Virus genome (UHGV): UHGV-0115014
Origin: a virus
Direction: 5' to 3' (one strand)
Length of the DNA stretch: 40,109 nt
The notes beneath the pieces are model-generated. The model was given only the letters and a program-made list of their open reading frames with translations. It was not told where the DNA came from and searched no databases. Shown piece by piece: positions 4,257 to 36,049 of this stretch; position 1 is the stretch's first letter; each line of letters opens with the position of its first letter. The translations under genes and the position numbers were made by a program.

Positions 4257-5074
4257 ATGTACATATCCTGTTTGCGTGCCCACTCAGGGCGTTTAATGAT
4301 TTCCACACCGCCCCATTCATCATTGATGCGGCATTCGTGATAGGTATTCAGATCCCGGCGGAACAGAGCGTGCCCGGCATCGACATCCGGCGCATCCAGC
4401 TCGAACACGCGTACCGGATACCGACCACAATCAATGCTTTCGCTCACGGCAAGAAAGAAAAAACCATGCGGCTGACCAGTAACCCTCATTGCGCCTTCGC
4501 GGTACATTGCGTCCTGCACGTGGTAGCGGAATTCCTCGATGTGGCGTGCAAAACGGTCCATATCTGCAACCTTTTTCACGTCGACGATCACGTTGTGCTC
4601 GTTCAGCCATTTGTCTGGACGAATGCGGCACAACTCACCAGTCTCTTCATCGTTCCAGTACATTGATGCTTCGCAGTAACCAGGTGCTTCCAGCATCCAG
4701 CGTGCCGCCGGGTGAGCCATTGCGCTATCACGCATCAGCTCCAGTTTCCGCCACTGCTCGGCATCAAGTACCGTAATCCCCATATCCGCTACATCACGAA
4801 GAAATGCTTCTTCGTCAGCTTTACCTTGTTTCGTCCGACGATCGAATTTCGGTGAAACAATGAAGCGTTTGTTGAATTCTCCAGGCTCCAGAAGCAGACA
4901 GTGCAATGCGGTTCCCATATCCAGTGCAGACTTTTTCTCTTCGTCTTCCGGAGCAGCCTTCACCCATTTCAGAAGGGCAGGGTTCTTAGCCACCATATCT
5001 AGCTGCGACTTACTCACGCCGTCACCGGCGTGGTAGTCCTCATTGCTGATGTCGAAATAGATGCCAGTATTCAT
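4253..5074 (-). CDS. RecE-like exonuclease (PD-(D/E)XK type, exonuclease VIII C-terminal-domain-like)
   Basis: 273 aa directly upstream of and coupled to recT, the usual exonuclease/annealase pairing of Rac-like prophages; acidic catalytic-looking block IVDVKKVADMD. Confidence 0.65.
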   Translation of the reverse strand: MNTGIYFDISNEDYHAGDGVSKSQLDMVAKNPALLKWVKAAPEDEEKKSALDMGTALHCLLLEPGEFNKRFIVSPKFDRRTKQGKADEEAFLRDVADMGITVLDAEQWRKLELMRDSAMAHPAARWMLEAPGYCEASMYWNDEETGELCRIRPDKWLNEHNVIVDVKKVADMDRFARHIEEFRYHVQDAMYREGAMRVTGQPHGFFFLAVSESIDCGRYPVRVFELDAPDVDAGHALFRRDLNTYHECRINDEWGGVEIIKRPEWARKQDMYI

Positions 5075-5881: not shown

Positions 5882-6466
5882 TTATTGTTTGTTTTTTTCG
5901 TTCTGGTTGATGACAAATTCAATGTAACTTTCGATCTTTGCTTTCTCGGTTTCTGGTAACAAAGCGTAGCGCGAGCGGTCATAGTTGATAGTCGCAGGGT
6001 CGTGCGGGTGAATCAGTAATTCATAGCCGTGACGCCCGAATGCGGATGCAACATTCTCCAGGGTGGAAATGGAAACGCTGACCTCATTGTTTAACAGGCG
6101 GCTGATTGTCACCTGGGCGACGCCGGATGCGCGGTGAAGTTTTCCCTGCGTTGAAAGGTCGCGGCTTTCGCTCATCCAGCGTTCCAGGTTGTGAGCCGCC
6201 AGTTGACCAATGTCGCTTGGTCCGACAGGCTGAAAACCTTCCTGAGAAAGCGAGCGATCGATATCAAGCCAGTTACGGGGTTTATTGGCGGCAGCTTCAA
6301 TTTTTCGCGCAACCTGGTCGCCGATAACCTTCTTGCCAAGAGCCCAGCGGTTTACCAGATTTGCCTGAGTTCCAAGTTTTTCAGCCATCCGCGTCTGAAC
6401 ACCATTGAATTCACGGTCGATCAAGTCGTTGAGATTTTGCCTGCGGACGTCCTGGATACTTTTCAT
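5882..6466 (-). CDS. Phage repressor-like protein with two HTH (XRE/Cro-C1-type) domains, no S24 peptidase domain
   Basis: 194 aa; two helix-turn-helix blocks (GVQTRMAEKLGTQANLVNRWALGKK and ASGVAQVTISRLLNNEVSVSISTLENVASAF); divergent from Cro-like gene; followed by intrinsic terminator. Confidence 0.7.
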   Translation of the reverse strand: MKSIQDVRRQNLNDLIDREFNGVQTRMAEKLGTQANLVNRWALGKKVIGDQVARKIEAAANKPRNWLDIDRSLSQEGFQPVGPSDIGQLAAHNLERWMSESRDLSTQGKLHRASGVAQVTISRLLNNEVSVSISTLENVASAFGRHGYELLIHPHDPATINYDRSRYALLPETEKAKIESYIEFVINQNEKNKQ

Positions 6467-7217: not shown

Positions 7218-8033
7218 ATGAGCAGACATGCAACAGATTGGGCCTGGGAGACAGATCCAGGTAGCTCATCATTAAAGCTCATACTGCTCTCGATGGCTGA
7301 CAGAGCCGATGAATATAACCTCTGCTACCCCAGCATAGAACGCCTCGTTAAAGACACTTGCCTGAATAAAAAAACCGTGCAGGCCGGGCTTATATCGCTC
7401 ATGAAAATGGGGCTTATTTCAGATACCGGAGAGAGAAAGGGAGCGACAAAAAGAGTGCGGGTTTTCTCTCTTAATATAACCAAAAACGGGAACATTAAAG
7501 GCAACCGGGAGGGGGGCAATGAACCCGAAAACGGGAATATACCCGAAAACGGGAATATACCCAAAAACGGGATGTTGAATGATCCCAAAAACGGGATGTT
7601 GAATGATCCCAAAAACGGGATCCAGAACCAGTCATATAACCAGTCATTTAACCAAGAGAGGGAGAGCAGGACAAAAAGCGGGGATTCTGTGCCTCATGAC
7701 CCCGGAGCAAACAACGCCGTGATGAATAACTTTGTTCCTCCTGGTGGGCCAGGGCAATTAGGCAAATTTGTCATGCATGAACAATGGCAGCCATCAGATG
7801 ACTTTCTTCGGAAAAGCTCATTGCAGGGGATCTACCTGGACAGTCTGCCAACGGCACAGGAACTTGCAGAGTTCAGAATTTACTGGATGGCTGAGGGTAA
7901 GGCATACCATCAGGCACAGTGGGAGCAGAAGCTGGCAAGGCGGCTGCAGATTAGCAGACAGAAGCAATCAACATTACCTGATAACAACGTTCCGCACTGG
8001 AACAGCCCTGAAGCATGGGAGGATTTCTTGTGA
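7218..8033 (+). CDS. Replication initiator, lambda O-like (iterons inside gene)
   Basis: 271 aa; N-terminal HTH-like region; central peptide NGNIPENGNIPKNGMLNDPKNGMLNDPKNG is the translation of a DNA iteron array, as in lambda O/ori. Confidence 0.7.
   Translation: MSRHATDWAWETDPGSSSLKLILLSMADRADEYNLCYPSIERLVKDTCLNKKTVQAGLISLMKMGLISDTGERKGATKRVRVFSLNITKNGNIKGNREGGNEPENGNIPENGNIPKNGMLNDPKNGMLNDPKNGIQNQSYNQSFNQERESRTKSGDSVPHDPGANNAVMNNFVPPGGPGQLGKFVMHEQWQPSDDFLRKSSLQGIYLDSLPTAQELAEFRIYWMAEGKAYHQAQWEQKLARRLQISRQKQSTLPDNNVPHWNSPEAWEDFL
7523..7623 (+). repeat. Iteron array (putative replication origin) inside O-like gene
   Basis: Five tandem repeats with palindromic core CCCRAAAACGGG: two 18-bp copies ACCCGAAAACGGGAATAT, two 24-25-bp copies CCCAAAAACGGGATGTTGAATGAT and a partial fifth; followed by AT-richer sequence with AACCAGTCAT x2. 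Confidence 0.65.
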
Positions 8034-12801: not shown

Positions 12802-12878
12802 TGGCGTGGCATGCAGGATTCGAACCTGCGACCAACCGCTTAGAAGGCGGTTGCTCTGTCCAACTGAGCTAATGCCAC
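12802..12878 (-). tRNA. tRNA-Arg (anticodon UCU), phage-encoded
   Basis: 77-nt cloverleaf read on minus strand: acceptor stem GTGGCAT/ATGCCAC, D-arm GCTC...GAGC, anticodon stem ACCGC/GCGGT with loop CTTCTAA (anticodon TCT), T-arm GCAGG-TTCGAAT-CCTGC, discriminator G and encoded CCA. Confidence 0.85.
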
Positions 12879-30032: not shown

Positions 30033-30057
30033 CACAAAAAAGCCCGCGGCGCGGGCT
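30033..30057 (-). terminator. Intrinsic terminator after YafO-like gene
   Basis: Minus-strand GCCCGCG-CCG-CGGGC hairpin followed by TTTTTTGTGG; overlaps stop codon. Confidence 0.6.
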
Positions 30058-30602
30058 TATTCCTTCCATTTATCAGAAAAAAGATCTTCTTCTAAAGGCA
30101 TTGGTTCTGTTTTTGTTTTCTCAAAGAATTGATAACTGATAGTGATTGCTGCCTCTTTAAACTCTTCTTGCTCAGTTATGTTGTGGGCATCTGCGTCAAC
30201 AAAAAACATAACCAGCGCATCACGATTGTGATTTACCGAATAAACTAAAAAGCAATTACTTGTTGGTATGCATTTTACTTGCACAGACGCTATTTTTTTC
30301 CATGCATCCCAAGATGATTTTTTACCAGTGTGTTTTTTATCACTATCTTCTGGAATATAGTCTTGGTTATCGACATGAGTATGCCTGACATTTAGTTTAA
30401 GCATTTCTGTCGGACGAGCAAATGCAGCATCTTTACCAAGAGATGGATGGTATCCCGTTTTCCAATACTGGGTAAAGGCATCAGATACTTTCTTCAGCTC
30501 AAGATCAGATGCACAAAGGGCCGAGAAATTTTGCGTATGCAATACTCGACCCTTATATCTGACAATTTGATTTTTATCATTCTGCGACGCAGACGAACTC
30601 AT
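30057..30602 (-). CDS. YafO-family toxin-like protein
   Basis: Table ORF 30057..30629 with start at MSSSAS; region DAFTQYWKTGYHPSLGKDAAFARPTEMLKLNVRHTHV and FLVYSVNHNRDALVMFFVD aligns with E. coli YafO blocks ADFISYKRDGVLPDIFGRDALY...LIKFERVAHIHL and HLVYCQGAFDEQAWLLIAIL (recalled from memory); intrinsic terminator at 3' end. Confidence 0.45.
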   Translation of the reverse strand: MSSSASQNDKNQIVRYKGRVLHTQNFSALCASDLELKKVSDAFTQYWKTGYHPSLGKDAAFARPTEMLKLNVRHTHVDNQDYIPEDSDKKHTGKKSSWDAWKKIASVQVKCIPTSNCFLVYSVNHNRDALVMFFVDADAHNITEQEEFKEAAITISYQFFEKTKTEPMPLEEDLFSDKWKE

Positions 30603-30756
30603 AATTTTCCTTATTGTTACGAGAATCAAAGAAAGCGCGGGATACGCGACTTGCGTGATCTTTTGTCATAGTAACTTTTACGCACTCTACGCTTCCATTG
30701 AAAGAACGTCTTGCGGCAGCTTGCGCTCTACGCATCTGCAATTTTTCGTTTCGCAT
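30577..30756 (-). CDS. Small basic ORF upstream of YafO-like gene (candidate antitoxin or leader peptide)
   Basis: Unlisted 59-aa ORF MRNEKLQMRRAQAAARRSF...; overlaps start of YafO-like gene in another frame; speculative. Confidence 0.2.
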   Translation of the reverse strand: MRNEKLQMRRAQAAARRSFNGSVECVKVTMTKDHASRVSRAFFDSRNNKENYEFVCVAE

Positions 30757-30816: not shown

Positions 30817-30831
30817 TTACCCTTGAGGTAA
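30817..30831. promoter_or_regulatory. TTACC-N5-GGTAA palindrome upstream of YafO-like cassette
   Basis: TTACCCTTGAGGTAA about 60 bp upstream (minus strand) of small ORF start 30756. Confidence 0.4.
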
Positions 30832-30903: not shown

Positions 30904-31599
30904 TCAGAAGAACCCTGCCTTGTCGTTGATGTACTCCGCGTGCGTCTGGATATCACGCAGGCATTTGCTCACACCGACGATGTAACAGAACATGGTGGTC
31001 AGCTCCGCCGCCGCGCCCGATACGTCGTGCCCGTCGTCCTGTAACTGGTTCAGCAGATTCATCAGCAGTGAGTTCTCCGTCAGGCCGAGAACACCAGACG
31101 GAGAATGAATCAGGCTGCGGTAGCCGGGCTTCAGCGGGGCACTGTAGGTTTTGTTCTCTATCTTCATTGCCTGCATTACTGCTGACGCCGTGGCGTTGGC
31201 TACCTGGTCGGCAACCATCTTTATGCGTTCTTCCTGCGGTAGCGAGTTTTTAATGTAACTTCCGGTGCGGCGGATCTGAGGAAGAACCTCACCTGTAACC
31301 CATTTACGAAAGCGGTAGGGGATAGTGCCTGGTGTCACCGCATCGCGGCAGCGGAGGATCAGTGTGTAGAGGCCTGACTCGGAGATGATGATCGATTCTT
31401 GCTCACCGCCAGGGGTGTCGGTTGAAGCGACGCCCTTCTCATCATCATCAAGTTTTCGAACAGCATCTCGATGGTTTGCTATGCCTATAGCCCGACAAAC
31501 ATCTGAAGCGATAAACCATGGCTCACCATTAATGACGATTACTCGTATATCGGCTTGGGATTCGAAAGAAAAAATGGACGTGCTTTTTGTAGCTGTCAT
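30904..31599 (-). CDS. Bro-N domain protein (antirepressor-like)
   Basis: 231 aa; N-terminal block VIVINGEPWFIASDVCRAIGIANHRDAVRKL is a Bro-N/antirepressor-type signature; C-terminal 70 aa are paralogous to ORF 32747..33004. Confidence 0.7.
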   Translation of the reverse strand: MTATKSTSIFSFESQADIRVIVINGEPWFIASDVCRAIGIANHRDAVRKLDDDEKGVASTDTPGGEQESIIISESGLYTLILRCRDAVTPGTIPYRFRKWVTGEVLPQIRRTGSYIKNSLPQEERIKMVADQVANATASAVMQAMKIENKTYSAPLKPGYRSLIHSPSGVLGLTENSLLMNLLNQLQDDGHDVSGAAAELTTMFCYIVGVSKCLRDIQTHAEYINDKAGFF

Positions 31600-31868
31600 A
31601 GTGGTTACCTTTTAGTCAGGTTAATCACCACTACCGACGCCAATCGGTTGGTGGTGAACTGTGCAGGGTTGGCGTAACCGGCTAAAAGGACCCGGCGCAC
31701 CTTTCGGTGCCCCCACACAGCCCACCATAATACGAATGTGGCCGTGCTATACGCATAAAAAAACCGCTTGCGCGGTGAATGCGCCTTTTAGTAATCCGGG
31801 ACGCCAATCCCGGCACTGGATTTTGCCAGTGCCCGATTACTATGGCACAAGAGGAGTGCAATGTAAAT

Positions 31869-31976
31869 TTACCGCAAAGGTAATGATAAACGCGGAGAAA
31901 TATTAAAATCAACCGCATTTGGTTGATTGCGTTTAACGCTTGATCACCTGAAAGCAAGATATTACCTTTAAGGTAA
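31869..31976. promoter_or_regulatory. Pair of TTACC-N5-GGTAA palindromes upstream of zinc-ribbon membrane protein gene
   Basis: TTACCGCAAAGGTAA (about 31869-31883) and TTACCTTTAAGGTAA (about 31962-31976), the latter 20 bp before ATG 31997. Confidence 0.45.
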
Positions 31977-31996
31977 TGTTATTGTGAGGAAAAGCA

Positions 31997-32725
31997 ATGG
32001 AAGTTTTCTGGATAGTTGTTGGTGTTGTTACGGTGATTATTTACGTTATCAACCAGAACAGGACTAAGGTCTCTGATCGCACAGTCGTTAATCATCGCAA
32101 AACGATAAAGACCGAAGATGGAGAAATAACGATTAATCGTACACAGGTGATAGACCACACCTCCACTCAGTTTCAAAAAACTGGAGGTAATGCGCCTAAT
32201 ATTTCCGCACCTCCTGCTTATGATAGTGCGGTAATCCAGACATATTATAAACAGCAGGAGTTAGCAAAAGAGAGGCAACTGATTCAGCCAAAGCCATTTA
32301 CAGCAGAGCTTCCACCTGGAGTGTCAACGCGTCCGGCATATCATGGAAGATTCCCTGGTGATGACATATCGTCTCAGTCATCTAAAAAAGCACCTCAGGC
32401 AGTATCAGAGCCAGCAAGAATACCTTCTGTATCGCCGCCAAAAGAAGAATCAGCTAACAGAGTTTCAAGTGGTAGCAAGCAGTGCTTGCGATGCAGAATA
32501 AACCTTCCATATGAAAAATTCAGGAAATCGTCAAAAAATCCAGATGGATTGACTAAGTGGTGTGCAAGGTGTCTCGATGGTCCAAAGAATACACGCCATA
32601 TGAAGTGGTGCCCAATTTGTAATGTCCGCAGAAAACGAACCAGCTTTTACCCTAATAATCAAAATGCGGATGGCTTAATGGCATGGTGCAAAACGTGCTG
32701 GGACGAGCACAAAGCGAAACGATAG
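31997..32725 (+). CDS. Membrane-anchored protein with two C-terminal zinc-ribbon repeats
   Basis: N-terminal TM helix VFWIVVGVVTVIIYVI, Pro/Ser-rich linker, then duplicated modules CLRC...DGLTKWCARC and CPIC...DGLMAWCKTC; several in-frame AGA/AGG codons; followed by intrinsic terminator. Confidence 0.55.
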   Translation: MEVFWIVVGVVTVIIYVINQNRTKVSDRTVVNHRKTIKTEDGEITINRTQVIDHTSTQFQKTGGNAPNISAPPAYDSAVIQTYYKQQELAKERQLIQPKPFTAELPPGVSTRPAYHGRFPGDDISSQSSKKAPQAVSEPARIPSVSPPKEESANRVSSGSKQCLRCRINLPYEKFRKSSKNPDGLTKWCARCLDGPKNTRHMKWCPICNVRRKRTSFYPNNQNADGLMAWCKTCWDEHKAKR

Positions 32726-32748
32726 GCCGCTCTAGCGGCCTTTTCTTT
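32724..32748 (+). terminator. Intrinsic terminator after zinc-ribbon membrane protein gene
   Basis: GGCCGC-TCTA-GCGGCC hairpin followed by TTTTCTTT. Confidence 0.6.
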
Positions 32749-33004
32749 ATGTGGTTTGTTTTCGTAATTGTTCGGCACAATAGTCGAGATGTGTTTGCAA
32801 ATCCTGCATAGACATCTGTGAGCTGGTGACGTAGTTAATCAGTGCAGTCAGTTCGGCAAGTGGGCCATCGACATTAAATCCATCCTTATCGAGATCCCGG
32901 AGTAATTTCATCAAGTGCGATCCCTCCACCAGTGACCTGACGCCTCCCGGCGTGTGAATCCTTTCGGTAAATCCGTCTTCCAGTGGATAGTGATACTGCT
33001 GCAT
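32747..33004 (-). CDS. Small protein homologous to the C-terminal domain of the Bro-N protein
   Basis: Table ORF 32747..33022 with ATG start at MQQYHY after GGAGAAG SD; about 40-45 percent identity over 70 aa with the C-terminus of 30904..31599 (LMKLLRDLDKDGFNVDGPLAELTALINYV...DLQTHLDY versus LMNLLNQLQDDGHDVSGAAAELTTMFCYI...DIQTHAEY). Confidence 0.55.
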   Translation of the reverse strand: MQQYHYPLEDGFTERIHTPGGVRSLVEGSHLMKLLRDLDKDGFNVDGPLAELTALINYVTSSQMSMQDLQTHLDYCAEQLRKQTT

Positions 33005-33080
33005 CTTATCTTCTCCATGCAATAACTGTATATTTATACAGTATCAAATAATTTGTTTGCTATCCAGCACGTTTTGCAAA

Positions 33081-33199: not shown

Positions 33200-36049
33200 A
33201 TGACGGTCTCAACCGAAGTTGACCACAACGAATACACAGGTAACGGCGTTACGACATCATTTCCGTATACCTTCCGTATTTTCAAAAAATCCGACCTGGT
33301 TGTTCAGGTGTCTGACCTTAACGGTAACGTAACAGAACTAGTGCTGGATGCTGGTTATACAGTAACAGGGGCGGGAACTTATAGTGGCGGTGCAGTGGTT
33401 CTTCCGTCGCCGCTTGCTGCTGGCTGGCGAATCACGATAGAGCGTGTGCTTGATGTGGTGCAGGAGACTGATCTTCGCAATCAGGGAAAATTTTTCCCCG
33501 AAGTTCATGAAGATGCATTTGACTACCTGACGATGCTGATCCAGCGATGTTTTGGGTGGTTCAGACGTGCATTGATGAAACCATCTTTGCTTGCAAAATA
33601 TTACGATGCAAAGCAAAACAGAATTTCCAATTTGGCCGATCCGAAGAACTCTCAGGATGCTGTAACAAAAAAATATGTGCAAGACTTATATAGTGGGGTA
33701 GTTAGGCCTGATAACATCGACAACGCAATGTATGTTACAGATCTCGCTAATGGCAAATATGACAGCTCTCGCTTGGACATGTCTGTCGGGTATGAGATAA
33801 AAACCATTTCAAACTTTGTCAGGATTAATGGGGCTGTTTATCGTGTTACTCCTGCTGCAGTCGGCATAGTGACAGAAATAACCTCGCGTTACATTTTGGC
33901 CGGAGGGAAAAAAAGCTACCTGTCTCATATTTCCAGGCATGTCAGTGGTACGCGTAGGCCGCTGAACTGGAAATTAGAATTCAGCATCATAGACGATGAG
34001 ATTACCGCAGATCTTAAAGATCAGTATGGTTACACGACCATGGGATTTCAGGGGATTTACATAGACAGCAATGATGGAATGGTATACATCGGCTGGCAGA
34101 CGCTAGACCCCGCATCGGTATGGGTTACGGTGCATGACTGGGTAACAGGAGCATTGGTAACACGTCTTCATTTTCCGAATAACGTTGGTGCACCAGAAGG
34201 CATCCACGTTTACCGAGTGGCAGGACAGCGTTACATCCTGCTGCCGTACAGCCCATCTCGCACTATCAGAATTTACCCTATCGAAGATCCGCGTACGCTG
34301 GTTGATAAAACGCAGATTACAAACTTCACTGAATCAACACGCCTTGGAGTGCGATATCAGTTTAGTGGCTTTGGTAATACCCTGATATACGAAAATGCGG
34401 ATATGGGTTGGCCGAAAATTTTTGATGTTGAGACAGGTGTATCCAATATCTTTAACACACTGGATATTAACAGCCTTATAGAAGGATCTTACAGTCCAAT
34501 GGGGACTATTACGGTTGATGCAAATGTTGGAGGTCGCGGAGCCGGTAAACCAAAACGGCAGGGTGTCGCTCTTGGTTCTCAACGGATATTTGCTGGTATT
34601 GGTGCATCTACCACGGCGGGATCTGGAAATACTTTCGCAGGGTTGCAGGGTTATATTGAGTACAGCCTTAATGGTTCAGAATTAGGTCAGTACCTGCTGT
34701 CACCTGCAGATTTCAAAACATACTGGGATAGTTATTCAGGGAAGAGTGTTTACTCCACTGAAAATGAGGGGGTGCAGTCTTGTGATATTTCTGGCTCTGA
34801 GGAATTGTATCTTCTACAGTCTATTCGCTATGACAATGGGGGCGGATCAAATTATAGGACTTTAAACATCATTCGCGCTAACTGTCCATCTAATGAACCT
34901 GGAACAGTAGACATGACTCCGCTATCCAATGCCTCATCACAGTTATTTAACCCTCGCGGAAGGGTGATTAACGCTGGCCGTCACCCTGTAAACCCGGCTG
35001 ATGGTATTGCGCTATTTACATCGGCACAGGCTATTTGTGACTATTTGCGGAATACAGATGCAGGTAGATATGTGACATATCTTGAACAGGATATGCCACT
35101 GTTTGAAGGTGGGCCATCTGCGCCAGGACAGATGACGCTGCCAGCATTCTGCCTATTGCAGATCGACTTCATCAACGGCGATACCTGGGAAATTACAGTT
35201 AATGGAACTAACAGGGCTAATAATTATACAGGAAGGATTTCCAAAAACGGCGGGTACAACTCTTTTACTAAGGTGTCCTCCCGCAGCATGTCGATTCTCG
35301 GATCCCCTGGTCTGGTTGATGTATCAATTCGCTCACCTAACTCACTAAATCTTCCAGAATTTGCTGGAGACTGGTCTACTGGTGTAAGTATAGGAGCTGC
35401 AGGTGGGGTGACAAACTGGCAGCCAGAAGGAACAGGTAACGGAGCATTATGGGAGTCAGGATATGCAAAAAACCGTGTGTTGCAGATATTCATGTCCACA
35501 ACATCAAAACTGTTCTTCCGCTACGCAGACGATGCTATTCGCGCAGGTAACACAGGCTGGGCTGAGGCATGGTCGTCGCTGAACACGACCGTCGATTCAA
35601 GTGGTTTCATCAAAAAAGCCTCTCCGGTTGTGAAGATTTTCTCAGACGGTAGTAGTGAAACAAATCGCGAATCAGATGGGGTAACCGTCACACGGCTGGC
35701 ATTAGGGGAATATCTGATTGAGGGTTGCGTAGGTCTGAATGCAGATGCTTCATGGGGGGGGATTGATGGTGGATTTGAAATACCGCAGGACCGAAACAAG
35801 CAGCCGCTCATCTGGCTGGATTATGTTGTTAACCAAGATGGCTCTGTGTTGGTGAAAACGTTTCACCGCACTCATGATAACTCGCCAGTTTTTGCACGTA
35901 ACGACATCCCTGGTGTTTCGAACGGTGACCCGATCGACATTCCTGCTAATCAGTTCGTTTCTGTGCGAGTACAGATGCCTGAGGATTCAGCATGGAATAA
36001 GCTTAAGGAACAACTCAATAAGGCTGAACCAATGGAAAAAAATAAGTAA
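33200..36049 (+). CDS. Tail fiber / tailspike protein with T7 gp17-like N-terminal adaptor domain
   Basis: 949 aa; N-terminal 150 aa (EYTGNGVTTSFPYTF...VVQVSDLNG...LDAGYTVTG...GWRITIERV...NRISNLADPKNSQDAV) parallels the T7 gp17 N-terminus pattern as recalled; the remaining 800 aa are not recognisably related. Confidence 0.7.
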   Translation: MTVSTEVDHNEYTGNGVTTSFPYTFRIFKKSDLVVQVSDLNGNVTELVLDAGYTVTGAGTYSGGAVVLPSPLAAGWRITIERVLDVVQETDLRNQGKFFPEVHEDAFDYLTMLIQRCFGWFRRALMKPSLLAKYYDAKQNRISNLADPKNSQDAVTKKYVQDLYSGVVRPDNIDNAMYVTDLANGKYDSSRLDMSVGYEIKTISNFVRINGAVYRVTPAAVGIVTEITSRYILAGGKKSYLSHISRHVSGTRRPLNWKLEFSIIDDEITADLKDQYGYTTMGFQGIYIDSNDGMVYIGWQTLDPASVWVTVHDWVTGALVTRLHFPNNVGAPEGIHVYRVAGQRYILLPYSPSRTIRIYPIEDPRTLVDKTQITNFTESTRLGVRYQFSGFGNTLIYENADMGWPKIFDVETGVSNIFNTLDINSLIEGSYSPMGTITVDANVGGRGAGKPKRQGVALGSQRIFAGIGASTTAGSGNTFAGLQGYIEYSLNGSELGQYLLSPADFKTYWDSYSGKSVYSTENEGVQSCDISGSEELYLLQSIRYDNGGGSNYRTLNIIRANCPSNEPGTVDMTPLSNASSQLFNPRGRVINAGRHPVNPADGIALFTSAQAICDYLRNTDAGRYVTYLEQDMPLFEGGPSAPGQMTLPAFCLLQIDFINGDTWEITVNGTNRANNYTGRISKNGGYNSFTKVSSRSMSILGSPGLVDVSIRSPNSLNLPEFAGDWSTGVSIGAAGGVTNWQPEGTGNGALWESGYAKNRVLQIFMSTTSKLFFRYADDAIRAGNTGWAEAWSSLNTTVDSSGFIKKASPVVKIFSDGSSETNRESDGVTVTRLALGEYLIEGCVGLNADASWGGIDGGFEIPQDRNKQPLIWLDYVVNQDGSVLVKTFHRTHDNSPVFARNDIPGVSNGDPIDIPANQFVSVRVQMPEDSAWNKLKEQLNKAEPMEKNK

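Follow-up and report, generated by a model that had tools for sequence, protein, structure and literature searches.

The described systems closest to the gene studied here combine position and architecture in different ways. P22 SieA is a small prophage-encoded inner-membrane protein of a short-tailed temperate phage, with three predicted transmembrane (TM) segments and no zinc domain, and on the P22 map sieA shares with the immI module the interval that separates the ejection-protein genes from the tailspike gene. In phi29 p16.7 and Escherichia coli ZipA, a flexible linker connects an N-terminal anchor to a cytoplasmic binding domain. A further setting is the slot after the repressor gene cI, which has been described as a defence hotspot under the highly active repressor promoter and is occupied by rexAB in phage lambda and by bstA in BTP1 (PMC8585504). 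Here we analysed the virus genome UHGV-0115014, a stretch of 40,109 nucleotides (hereafter the window) that represents a phiV10/epsilon15-like (Uetakevirus) prophage of the temperate podophage type. The open reading frame (ORF) at 31997-32725 (+ strand), with an ATG start and a stop codon, encodes a 242-residue protein that joins a predicted membrane anchor to two tandem zinc ribbons, and we refer to it as the zinc-ribbon gene. It is carried on an optional cassette, its relatives cluster at phage immunity regions, and our best guess, offered tentatively, is that its product may be a membrane-tethered exclusion or defence protein.

The immunity-region synteny of the family is a new finding and our main new evidence. 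Relatives are nearly always found beside repressor or antirepressor genes. In at least seven lineages, with proteins 21–30% identical to the window protein, the homologue lies directly 3' of a Peptidase_S24 cI gene and in the same orientation, across gaps of 15–55 bp (phiARM81mr and the lineages numbered L091, L094, L096, L098, L099 and L110 in our set). The carriers include Aeromonas phage phiARM81mr, the metagenomic L091, L094 and L096, Marinobacterium and an Acinetobacter genome; L110 is a lambdoid prophage in which P22_Cro diverges from cI and the homologue follows cI. Gaps of this length leave no room for an independent promoter and terminator, and the homologues in the lambdoid relatives appear to be positioned for co-transcription with cI, i.e. 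for expression in lysogens. These diverged homologues thus share the slot of lambda RexAB and BTP1 BstA, directly after cI and co-oriented, although sequence and architecture are unrelated and the window copy sits beside the ant/immI genes with its own operator-bearing promoter. Other arrangements keep the same company: in Oceanobacter and Pseudoalteromonas the homologue converges with cI tail-to-tail, in Acinetobacter corruptisaponis it comes after an Arc-like gene with a KilA-N gene alongside, in Haemophilus it diverges from a Bro-N/P22_AR_C antirepressor gene, and the epsilon15-like phages of Enterobacter and Serratia have it next to Bro-N, KilA-N or pRha genes. The Buttiauxella copy belongs to a small element whose S24 repressor lies 3.3 kb from it, and the Providencia copy is flanked by a small ORF of gp24 size and by the virion genes, without an Ant gene in the vicinity.

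The window copy itself is not downstream of cI; it lies next to ant, about 25 kb from the helix-turn-helix (HTH) repressor gene (5882-6466, − strand). Its cassette sits between a P1/P7 immI-like module (isrK, C4 RNA and ant, to the left on the − strand) and the tailspike gene, and genes for large internal virion proteins precede this region. By analogy, the gene would occupy the interval equivalent to the sieA position in P22, between ejection or internal-virion genes and tailspike, together with an antirepressor (immI) module. The likeness would extend to the product, in both cases a small prophage-encoded inner-membrane protein (predicted for the window protein) of a short-tailed temperate phage. 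Sequence similarity between the two proteins was not detected, and no superinfection-exclusion family was found among the PHROG matches. An earlier note on this DNA, made from the letters alone, had overlooked both the immunity-region synteny and the relationship of the zinc ribbons to Stc1 and HNH-associated modules described below.

We next considered the protein. Its sole hydrophobic segment by the Kyte-Doolittle scale covers residues 1–21, and an AlphaFold2 model built with a 52-sequence alignment (an earlier model had used a shallower one) places a helix at residues 3–20, in line with the single N-terminal TM helix that the earlier note had described. According to the positive-inside rule, the C-terminal part should be cytoplasmic, as E2 precedes the helix and R22, K24, R28, R34, K35 and K38 follow it. 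With this N-out/C-in orientation, the predicted periplasm-exposed part comprises two residues only (Met-Glu), and the zinc domain would reside in the cytoplasm, where Cys4 zinc sites are stable. A signal peptide in place of an anchor was rejected, given that the sequence has neither a basic n-region nor a cleavage motif. Next to the membrane, a long two-stranded beta-hairpin, predicted with confidence, bears the motif TIxTxxGExxIER, conserved among homologues, and is possibly an oligomerisation element. The following region is rich in Pro and Ser as claimed before, with 14 Pro, 13 Ser, 11 Ala and 9 Gln in the 102 residues from 57 to 158, and the linker varies from 59 to 102 residues across homologues.

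The compact C-terminal domain (residues 160–242) is modelled with a predicted local distance difference test (pLDDT) score above 93. It is composed of two 42-residue modules that align without gaps at a score of 68, compared to −13 ± 10 for shuffled sequences, none of 1000 shuffles reaching 68. All eight Cys of the protein fall into an exact 42-residue period and DGL..WC..C recurs in both modules, which bears out the tandem C-x2-C...DGL(T/M).WC..C repeats noticed earlier. The Cys4 ribbons are likely to bind zinc. Jointly they carry a net charge of +14, and the zinc domain is strongly basic in every homologue examined (+9 to +17), with Lys and Arg conserved. In its predicted topology and 'ball on a tether' design, the protein would resemble p16.7 and ZipA, from which it differs in genomic context and to which it has no sequence or fold relationship.

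To place the protein among known families, we ran profile and structure searches. PHROG 6762, a family of unknown function, is the only full-length family match (E 2e-149, residues 1–242 on positions 1–242 of the 242-position profile), consistent with the earlier impression that the architecture belongs to no characterised phage family. Close homologues number 33, and full-length cluster representatives (180–240 residues) about 55, every one named 'hypothetical protein' in the databases. The family did not surface in the literature either by protein accession or under zinc ribbon, transmembrane and exclusion/anti-phage terms. Homology to a virion or assembly protein, which the earlier note had named as a refuting outcome, was not found in the family searches, and an NCBIfam scan gave nothing significant. 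Across 38–52 full-length homologues (21–68% identity), the M-E-TM-N.xK start, the hairpin motif and all eight Cys are kept. The family is hence catalogued but uncharacterised, and its architecture matches no described exclusion or defence protein. A partial match to the Lar-like restriction alleviation protein family (phrog_5558) was rejected as an assignment; it covers only residues 201–241 on profile positions 7–47 of 130 and reflects the common zinc ribbon.

An exhaustive profile search yielded 1866 proteins at E <= 1e-3; those outside the full-length family share the zinc module only, often in 3–10 tandem copies. Among 98 partial relatives, Pfam domains were Stc1 in 50, HNH, HNH_5 and Endonuclease_7 in 9–10 each, and helicase domains in single members. 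Some relatives are very large: P0045 (2046 residues) and other big proteins combine up to 10 tandem zinc-ribbon modules with ResIII/DEAD helicase, HEAT-repeat and winged-helix domains, an unexplored architecture. For the window protein, Stc1 (PF12898) is the best Pfam match (21.0 bits, E 5.2e-4, below the 24.8-bit gathering cutoff), and the Stc1 model matches 9 of 38 family representatives at E<0.01; with E up to 10, Pfam returned only Stc1 and two RING-type zinc-finger models. The top Foldseek match in the PDB is likewise the Stc1 tandem zinc finger 2LUY (E 4.2e-3, probability 0.91, with low TM-scores); other near folds are Hpy99I and PacI. A viral fold library returned HNH endonucleases and "Zn-finger proteins" of giant viruses and phages, and a search of PDB sequences gave a weak PacI match only (E 0.19). 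Schizosaccharomyces pombe Stc1 and the phage and giant-virus HNH zinc-ribbon module also contain two consecutive Cys4 ribbons of the pattern K-x-C-x2-C...F...DGL...C-K-x-C; they differ in what the ribbons are joined to, which is a nuclease, a helicase or a eukaryotic adaptor tail in those proteins and, in the window protein, a TM anchor with a beta-hairpin. Phage HNH nickases that have lost their additional zinc-ribbon domain are less active and less specific (PMC3592412), and fission yeast Stc1 functions as a protein-protein adaptor (PMC2875855).

The modelled domain shows the Cys4 zinc-stabilised core fold of HNH/beta-beta-alpha-Me nucleases. In contrast to Hpy99I, PacI and the T4 endonuclease VII family, which combine this fold with Cys4 zinc sites, the window protein lacks the catalytic His/Asn. 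No Pfam match to the HNH families (PF01844, PF02945 and relatives) was seen at E up to 10, and the modules of the 38–52 homologues have no invariant or nearly invariant His or Asn. An active HNH nuclease was rejected on these two grounds. The window protein is thus almost certainly not a nuclease, and by its sequence it is a non-catalytic relative of the beta-beta-alpha-Me nuclease zinc scaffold.

The gene forms an accessory cassette ('moron') that is optional and self-contained and does not belong to the phage core. The segment 31600-33200 shares 96.8% identity with E. coli phage TL-2011b, and two complete E. coli chromosomes contain the cassette (31861-32745) at 100% identity; it is missing from phiV10 and some ten further records of related phages, which align with the flanks only. 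Of 5426 complete E. coli genomes, 134 carry the cassette (about 2.5%), compared to 531 with the adjacent gp24-tailspike junction, so that it is found in about 25% of the related E. coli prophages. Its E. coli carriers are widespread among clinical and animal isolates. All gene-bearing phage records and viral contigs that we examined look temperate (phages and prophages), and the family was not found in virulent phages in this set. The left cassette junction (31860-31885) shows an operator core in inverted orientation, TTACCGCAAAGGTAA in the window versus TTACCTTTGCGGTAA in phiV10 (locus L002, about 4260-4300), suggesting that operators serve as recombination joints between modules. In phiV10, a perfect 41-bp palindrome has this core as its loop and inner stem.

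The earlier note had given the gene its own palindrome-bearing promoter and terminator. Promoter, palindrome and terminator were all found, but the palindrome is not specific to the gene. A simple consensus scan did not call the promoter, which we therefore infer from its layout; the −35 element, 17-bp spacing and TACCTT are kept in orthologue loci of Enterobacter, Citrobacter-type bacteria and Serratia, although the proteins are only 52–64% identical. The palindrome TTACC-N5-GGTAA, searched with one mismatch allowed, occurs 16 times in the window versus 0.73 expected by chance, and 14 times in phiV10. Copies lie at or beside promoter-like sequences of most transcription units, often paired 48–93 bp apart. 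Two of them separate the HTH repressor gene from the cro-side operon, and another two are placed on either side of a perfect TTGACA promoter that lies downstream of that gene. Since copies precede most transcription units, the repressor/cro region included, we read the palindrome from its placement as the general operator of the phage, to which the repressor encoded at 5882-6466 would bind. The scattered sites resemble the dispersed C1 operators of P1; no operators are annotated in the phiV10 GenBank record. In diverged epsilon15-like loci, the operator is again found 32–39 bp 5' of the ATG. Because the palindrome at its promoter is the phage-wide operator, the zinc-ribbon gene is wired into the regulatory circuit of the phage. 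The orthologue loci of Enterobacter and Citrobacter-type bacteria (L065-L070 and L005) have in addition a perfect palindrome, TGTGACATGTCACA, about 62–75 bp 5' of the ATG and immediately upstream of the −35 element. The E. coli cassette is without it and has the hairpin AATCAACC-GCATTT-GGTTGATT at 31907-31928 instead.

Taken together, an exclusion or defence function is the reading that we favour, on the basis of synteny and domain logic. Its main support is the cI-operon position of the homologues in seven other lineages, and the optional cassette, the temperate-only range, the membrane anchor and the very basic, tethered cytoplasmic binding domain point in the same direction. We picture a bitopic inner-membrane protein with two residues in the periplasm, one TM helix and the rest in the cytoplasm, where the beta-hairpin may drive oligomerisation and a flexible tether of 60–100 residues would carry the rigid, basic tandem Cys4 zinc-ribbon domain. 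On the cytoplasmic side of the membrane, this domain could capture a polyanionic or protein ligand, most likely incoming phage DNA or the cytoplasmic end of a DNA-ejection conduit, and capture would block or abort superinfection. Role and genome position would then be analogous to those of P22 SieA and of the cI-downstream RexAB and BstA. That the family represents a so far unrecognised single-gene system for superinfection exclusion or abortive infection in temperate phages of Gammaproteobacteria, in which an oligomeric anchor holds tethered Stc1-like ribbons that intercept the DNA or the tip of the ejection conduit, is a more speculative proposal and, as it stands, a doubtful one. We know of no described exclusion protein that uses tethered zinc ribbons beneath the membrane.

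Several observations weigh against the favoured reading; the main one against a function expressed in the lysogen is the perfect operator over the −10 element in the window phage. As the same operator is found in the repressor/cro region, repression may keep the zinc-ribbon gene silent in the lysogen and confine its expression to the early period after infection or induction, and such silence suits a lysogen-protecting function less well. This argument is not decisive, because oac of phiV10, which is active in the lysogen and described by its annotators as functioning in superinfection immunity, has a similar operator site about 40 bp upstream. The hotspot synteny is circumstantial in that such slots also house non-defence genes. 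Furthermore, the TM helix is purely hydrophobic, without an obvious pore-forming surface, and DNA binding by the zinc domain is not assured, given that the Stc1 zinc finger belongs to a protein-protein adaptor. Finally, no defence model of PADLOC-DB v2.0.0 matched the protein, the sole match being TniQ at E 1.8.

The nearly constant proximity to cI, Arc or Ant genes is also what one would expect of an immunity or lysis-lysogeny modulator, in which the tethered zinc domain sequesters or presents a repressor, an antirepressor or a host factor (RecA, LexA, FtsH) and thereby tunes the establishment or maintenance of lysogeny. The zinc-ribbon gene and the isrK-C4-ant module share one divergent, operator-controlled promoter region, and the yeast protein that defines this zinc-finger domain is an adaptor between proteins. 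We nevertheless regard such a role as unlikely. The gene is dispensable, being absent from about 75% of closely related prophages and from phiV10; the repressor types that co-occur with it are unrelated (S24 cI, non-S24 HTH, Arc), which makes a specific regulatory partner hard to name; and the extreme positive charge points more to a polyanion ligand.

The operator-controlled promoter would equally fit an early lytic gene, and the architecture of TM anchor, spacer and basic, possibly DNA-binding domain is that of phi29 p16.7, so that the protein might anchor the phage's own DNA to the membrane for replication, transcription or packaging. This we consider improbable: near-identical phages do without the gene, the lambdoid relatives have it placed for co-transcription with cI, in lysogens, and it was not found in virulent phages. 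No p16.7 chain came up at E up to 10 when PDB sequences, which presumably cover p16.7, were searched with the profile. Of similarly low probability is a lysogenic-conversion factor that would act through a host partner on envelope physiology, cell division or the stress response. The moron structure with its own promoter and terminator, the low G+C content, the predicted membrane location and the spread of the gene among clinical and animal E. coli would all suit such a factor, but Pfam, PHROG and NCBIfam scans revealed no similarity to known conversion or virulence factors, the part predicted to be exposed to the periplasm is only two residues long, and the module family is tied to nucleic-acid enzymes. 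Least of all do we expect a decayed remnant of a mobile HNH (homing) endonuclease, i.e. a functionless selfish cassette, as Pfam gave no HNH match, neither His nor Asn is invariant, and TM helix, hairpin motif and the eight Cys are all kept down to 21–30% identity across Gammaproteobacteria, an architecture-wide conservation that argues for purifying selection on a non-nuclease protein.

Table 1. Features of the zinc-ribbon gene, its cassette and its surroundings, in window coordinates.
Feature	Position	Strand	Details
Optional cassette	31860..32745	.	886 bp; here and in TL-2011b; ~66 bp in its place in phiV10 (three-way alignment)
Predicted sigma-70 promoter	31940..31968	+	−35 TTGATC 31940-31945; 17-bp spacer; −10 TACCTT 31963-31968; read from sequence
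Operator palindrome TTACCTTTAAGGTAA	31962..31976	.	perfect copy; overlaps −10 and transcription start
Shine-Dalgarno GAGG	31986-31989	+	7 nt 5' of ATG; read from sequence
TM helix (predicted)	32003..32056	+	residues 3-20; AlphaFold2 pLDDT about 90
Membrane-proximal two-stranded beta-hairpin (predicted)	32060..32173	+	residues 22-59 (22-39/42-59); AlphaFold2 pLDDT about 90 over 31-50
Helix, then disordered linker (predicted)	32225..32470	+	residues 77-158 (helix 77-93, linker 94-158); AlphaFold2
Zinc ribbon 1	32471..32596	+	residues 159-200; invariant C163, C166, C189, C192; DGLTKWC; pLDDT above 93
Zinc ribbon 2	32597..32722	+	residues 201-242; C205, C208, C231, C234; DGLMAWC
Intrinsic terminator	32724..32741	+	hairpin AGGCCGC-TCTA-GCGGCCT, then T-run TTTTCTTT; terminator scan
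Divergent leftward promoter-like site	31869..31912	-	TTGATT, 18 bp, TATCAT at 31912-31883; own operator at 31869-31883
isrK small RNA	31757-31832	-	77.9 bits
C4 antisense RNA	31647-31732	-	77.7 bits
a1b1-like target	31793-31845	-	45.1 bits, slightly below cutoff
Antirepressor gene (ant)	30904-31599	-	
Small gp24-like gene (phrog_450)	32747-33022	-	homologous to C-terminal part of antirepressor (residues 148-229)
Tailspike gene	33200-36049		right of cassette
tRNA-Arg(UCU)	12802-12878	-	anticodon tct
16 operator sites	5748, 5810, 6522, 6570, 6907, 8853, 8915, 10041, 10059, 13201, 30817, 31869, 31962, 33081, 33313, 36431		

On the left of the cassette (Table 1), the divergent promoter-like site would drive the isrK/C4 RNA/antirepressor (immI-like) unit. 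About 200 bp of this module are ~81% identical to sequences in many Stx-converting phages. On the right, the terminator of the zinc-ribbon gene is shared with the gp24-like gene, which is arranged tail-to-tail with it; the gp24-like gene represents a free-standing copy of the Ant domain. A second accessory cassette is probably formed by the ORF at 30057-30629 (− strand; phrog_1651, unknown function), with a G+C content of 0.37, half of its Arg codons being AGA/AGG and an operator copy upstream at 30817.

The codon usage of the zinc-ribbon gene probably bears the mark of its mobility. The earlier note had counted at least six AGA/AGG codons, which is correct as a lower bound and an undercount, the actual number being 9 of 18 Arg codons (5 AGA and 4 AGG). 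When AGA/AGG codons were counted for each gene, as the note had proposed, the zinc-ribbon gene reached the highest density of the 36 window ORFs, 37 per 1000 codons versus a mean of 9.8 (Fisher p = 0.001). The replication-initiator gene (7218-8033) is nearly as rich, with 33 per 1000. The G+C content of the zinc-ribbon gene is 0.44 compared to about 0.50 for the phage. Orthologues from other Enterobacterales are also rich in these codons (6–11 of 13–19 Arg codons), and in most lineages their G+C content is below that of their own flanks. The note had further matched the rare codons to the tRNA-Arg(UCU) of the phage. We rejected a dedicated pairing of gene and tRNA, because phiV10 has the same tRNA-Arg(tct) at the matching backbone position and lacks the gene, which makes the tRNA backbone equipment of the phage; ZX5 has one tRNA, not necessarily this one, and no zinc-ribbon gene. 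The codon bias is real and best read as a compositional signature of an AT-rich mobile cassette.

If the favoured exclusion reading is correct, the gene would be a compact single-gene phage-exclusion determinant of new architecture, distributed in prophages from Aeromonas to Acinetobacter, and it would add a new mechanistic type to the few proteins that act at the DNA-entry step, with relevance to phage therapy and to E. coli phage typing. The presence of a P1-like immI module under the phage-wide operator clarifies the regulation of phiV10-like phages. Whatever its function, the family is a clean case of the widespread Stc1/HNH-associated zinc ribbon outside a nuclease, and as such it could reveal the ligand of the module.

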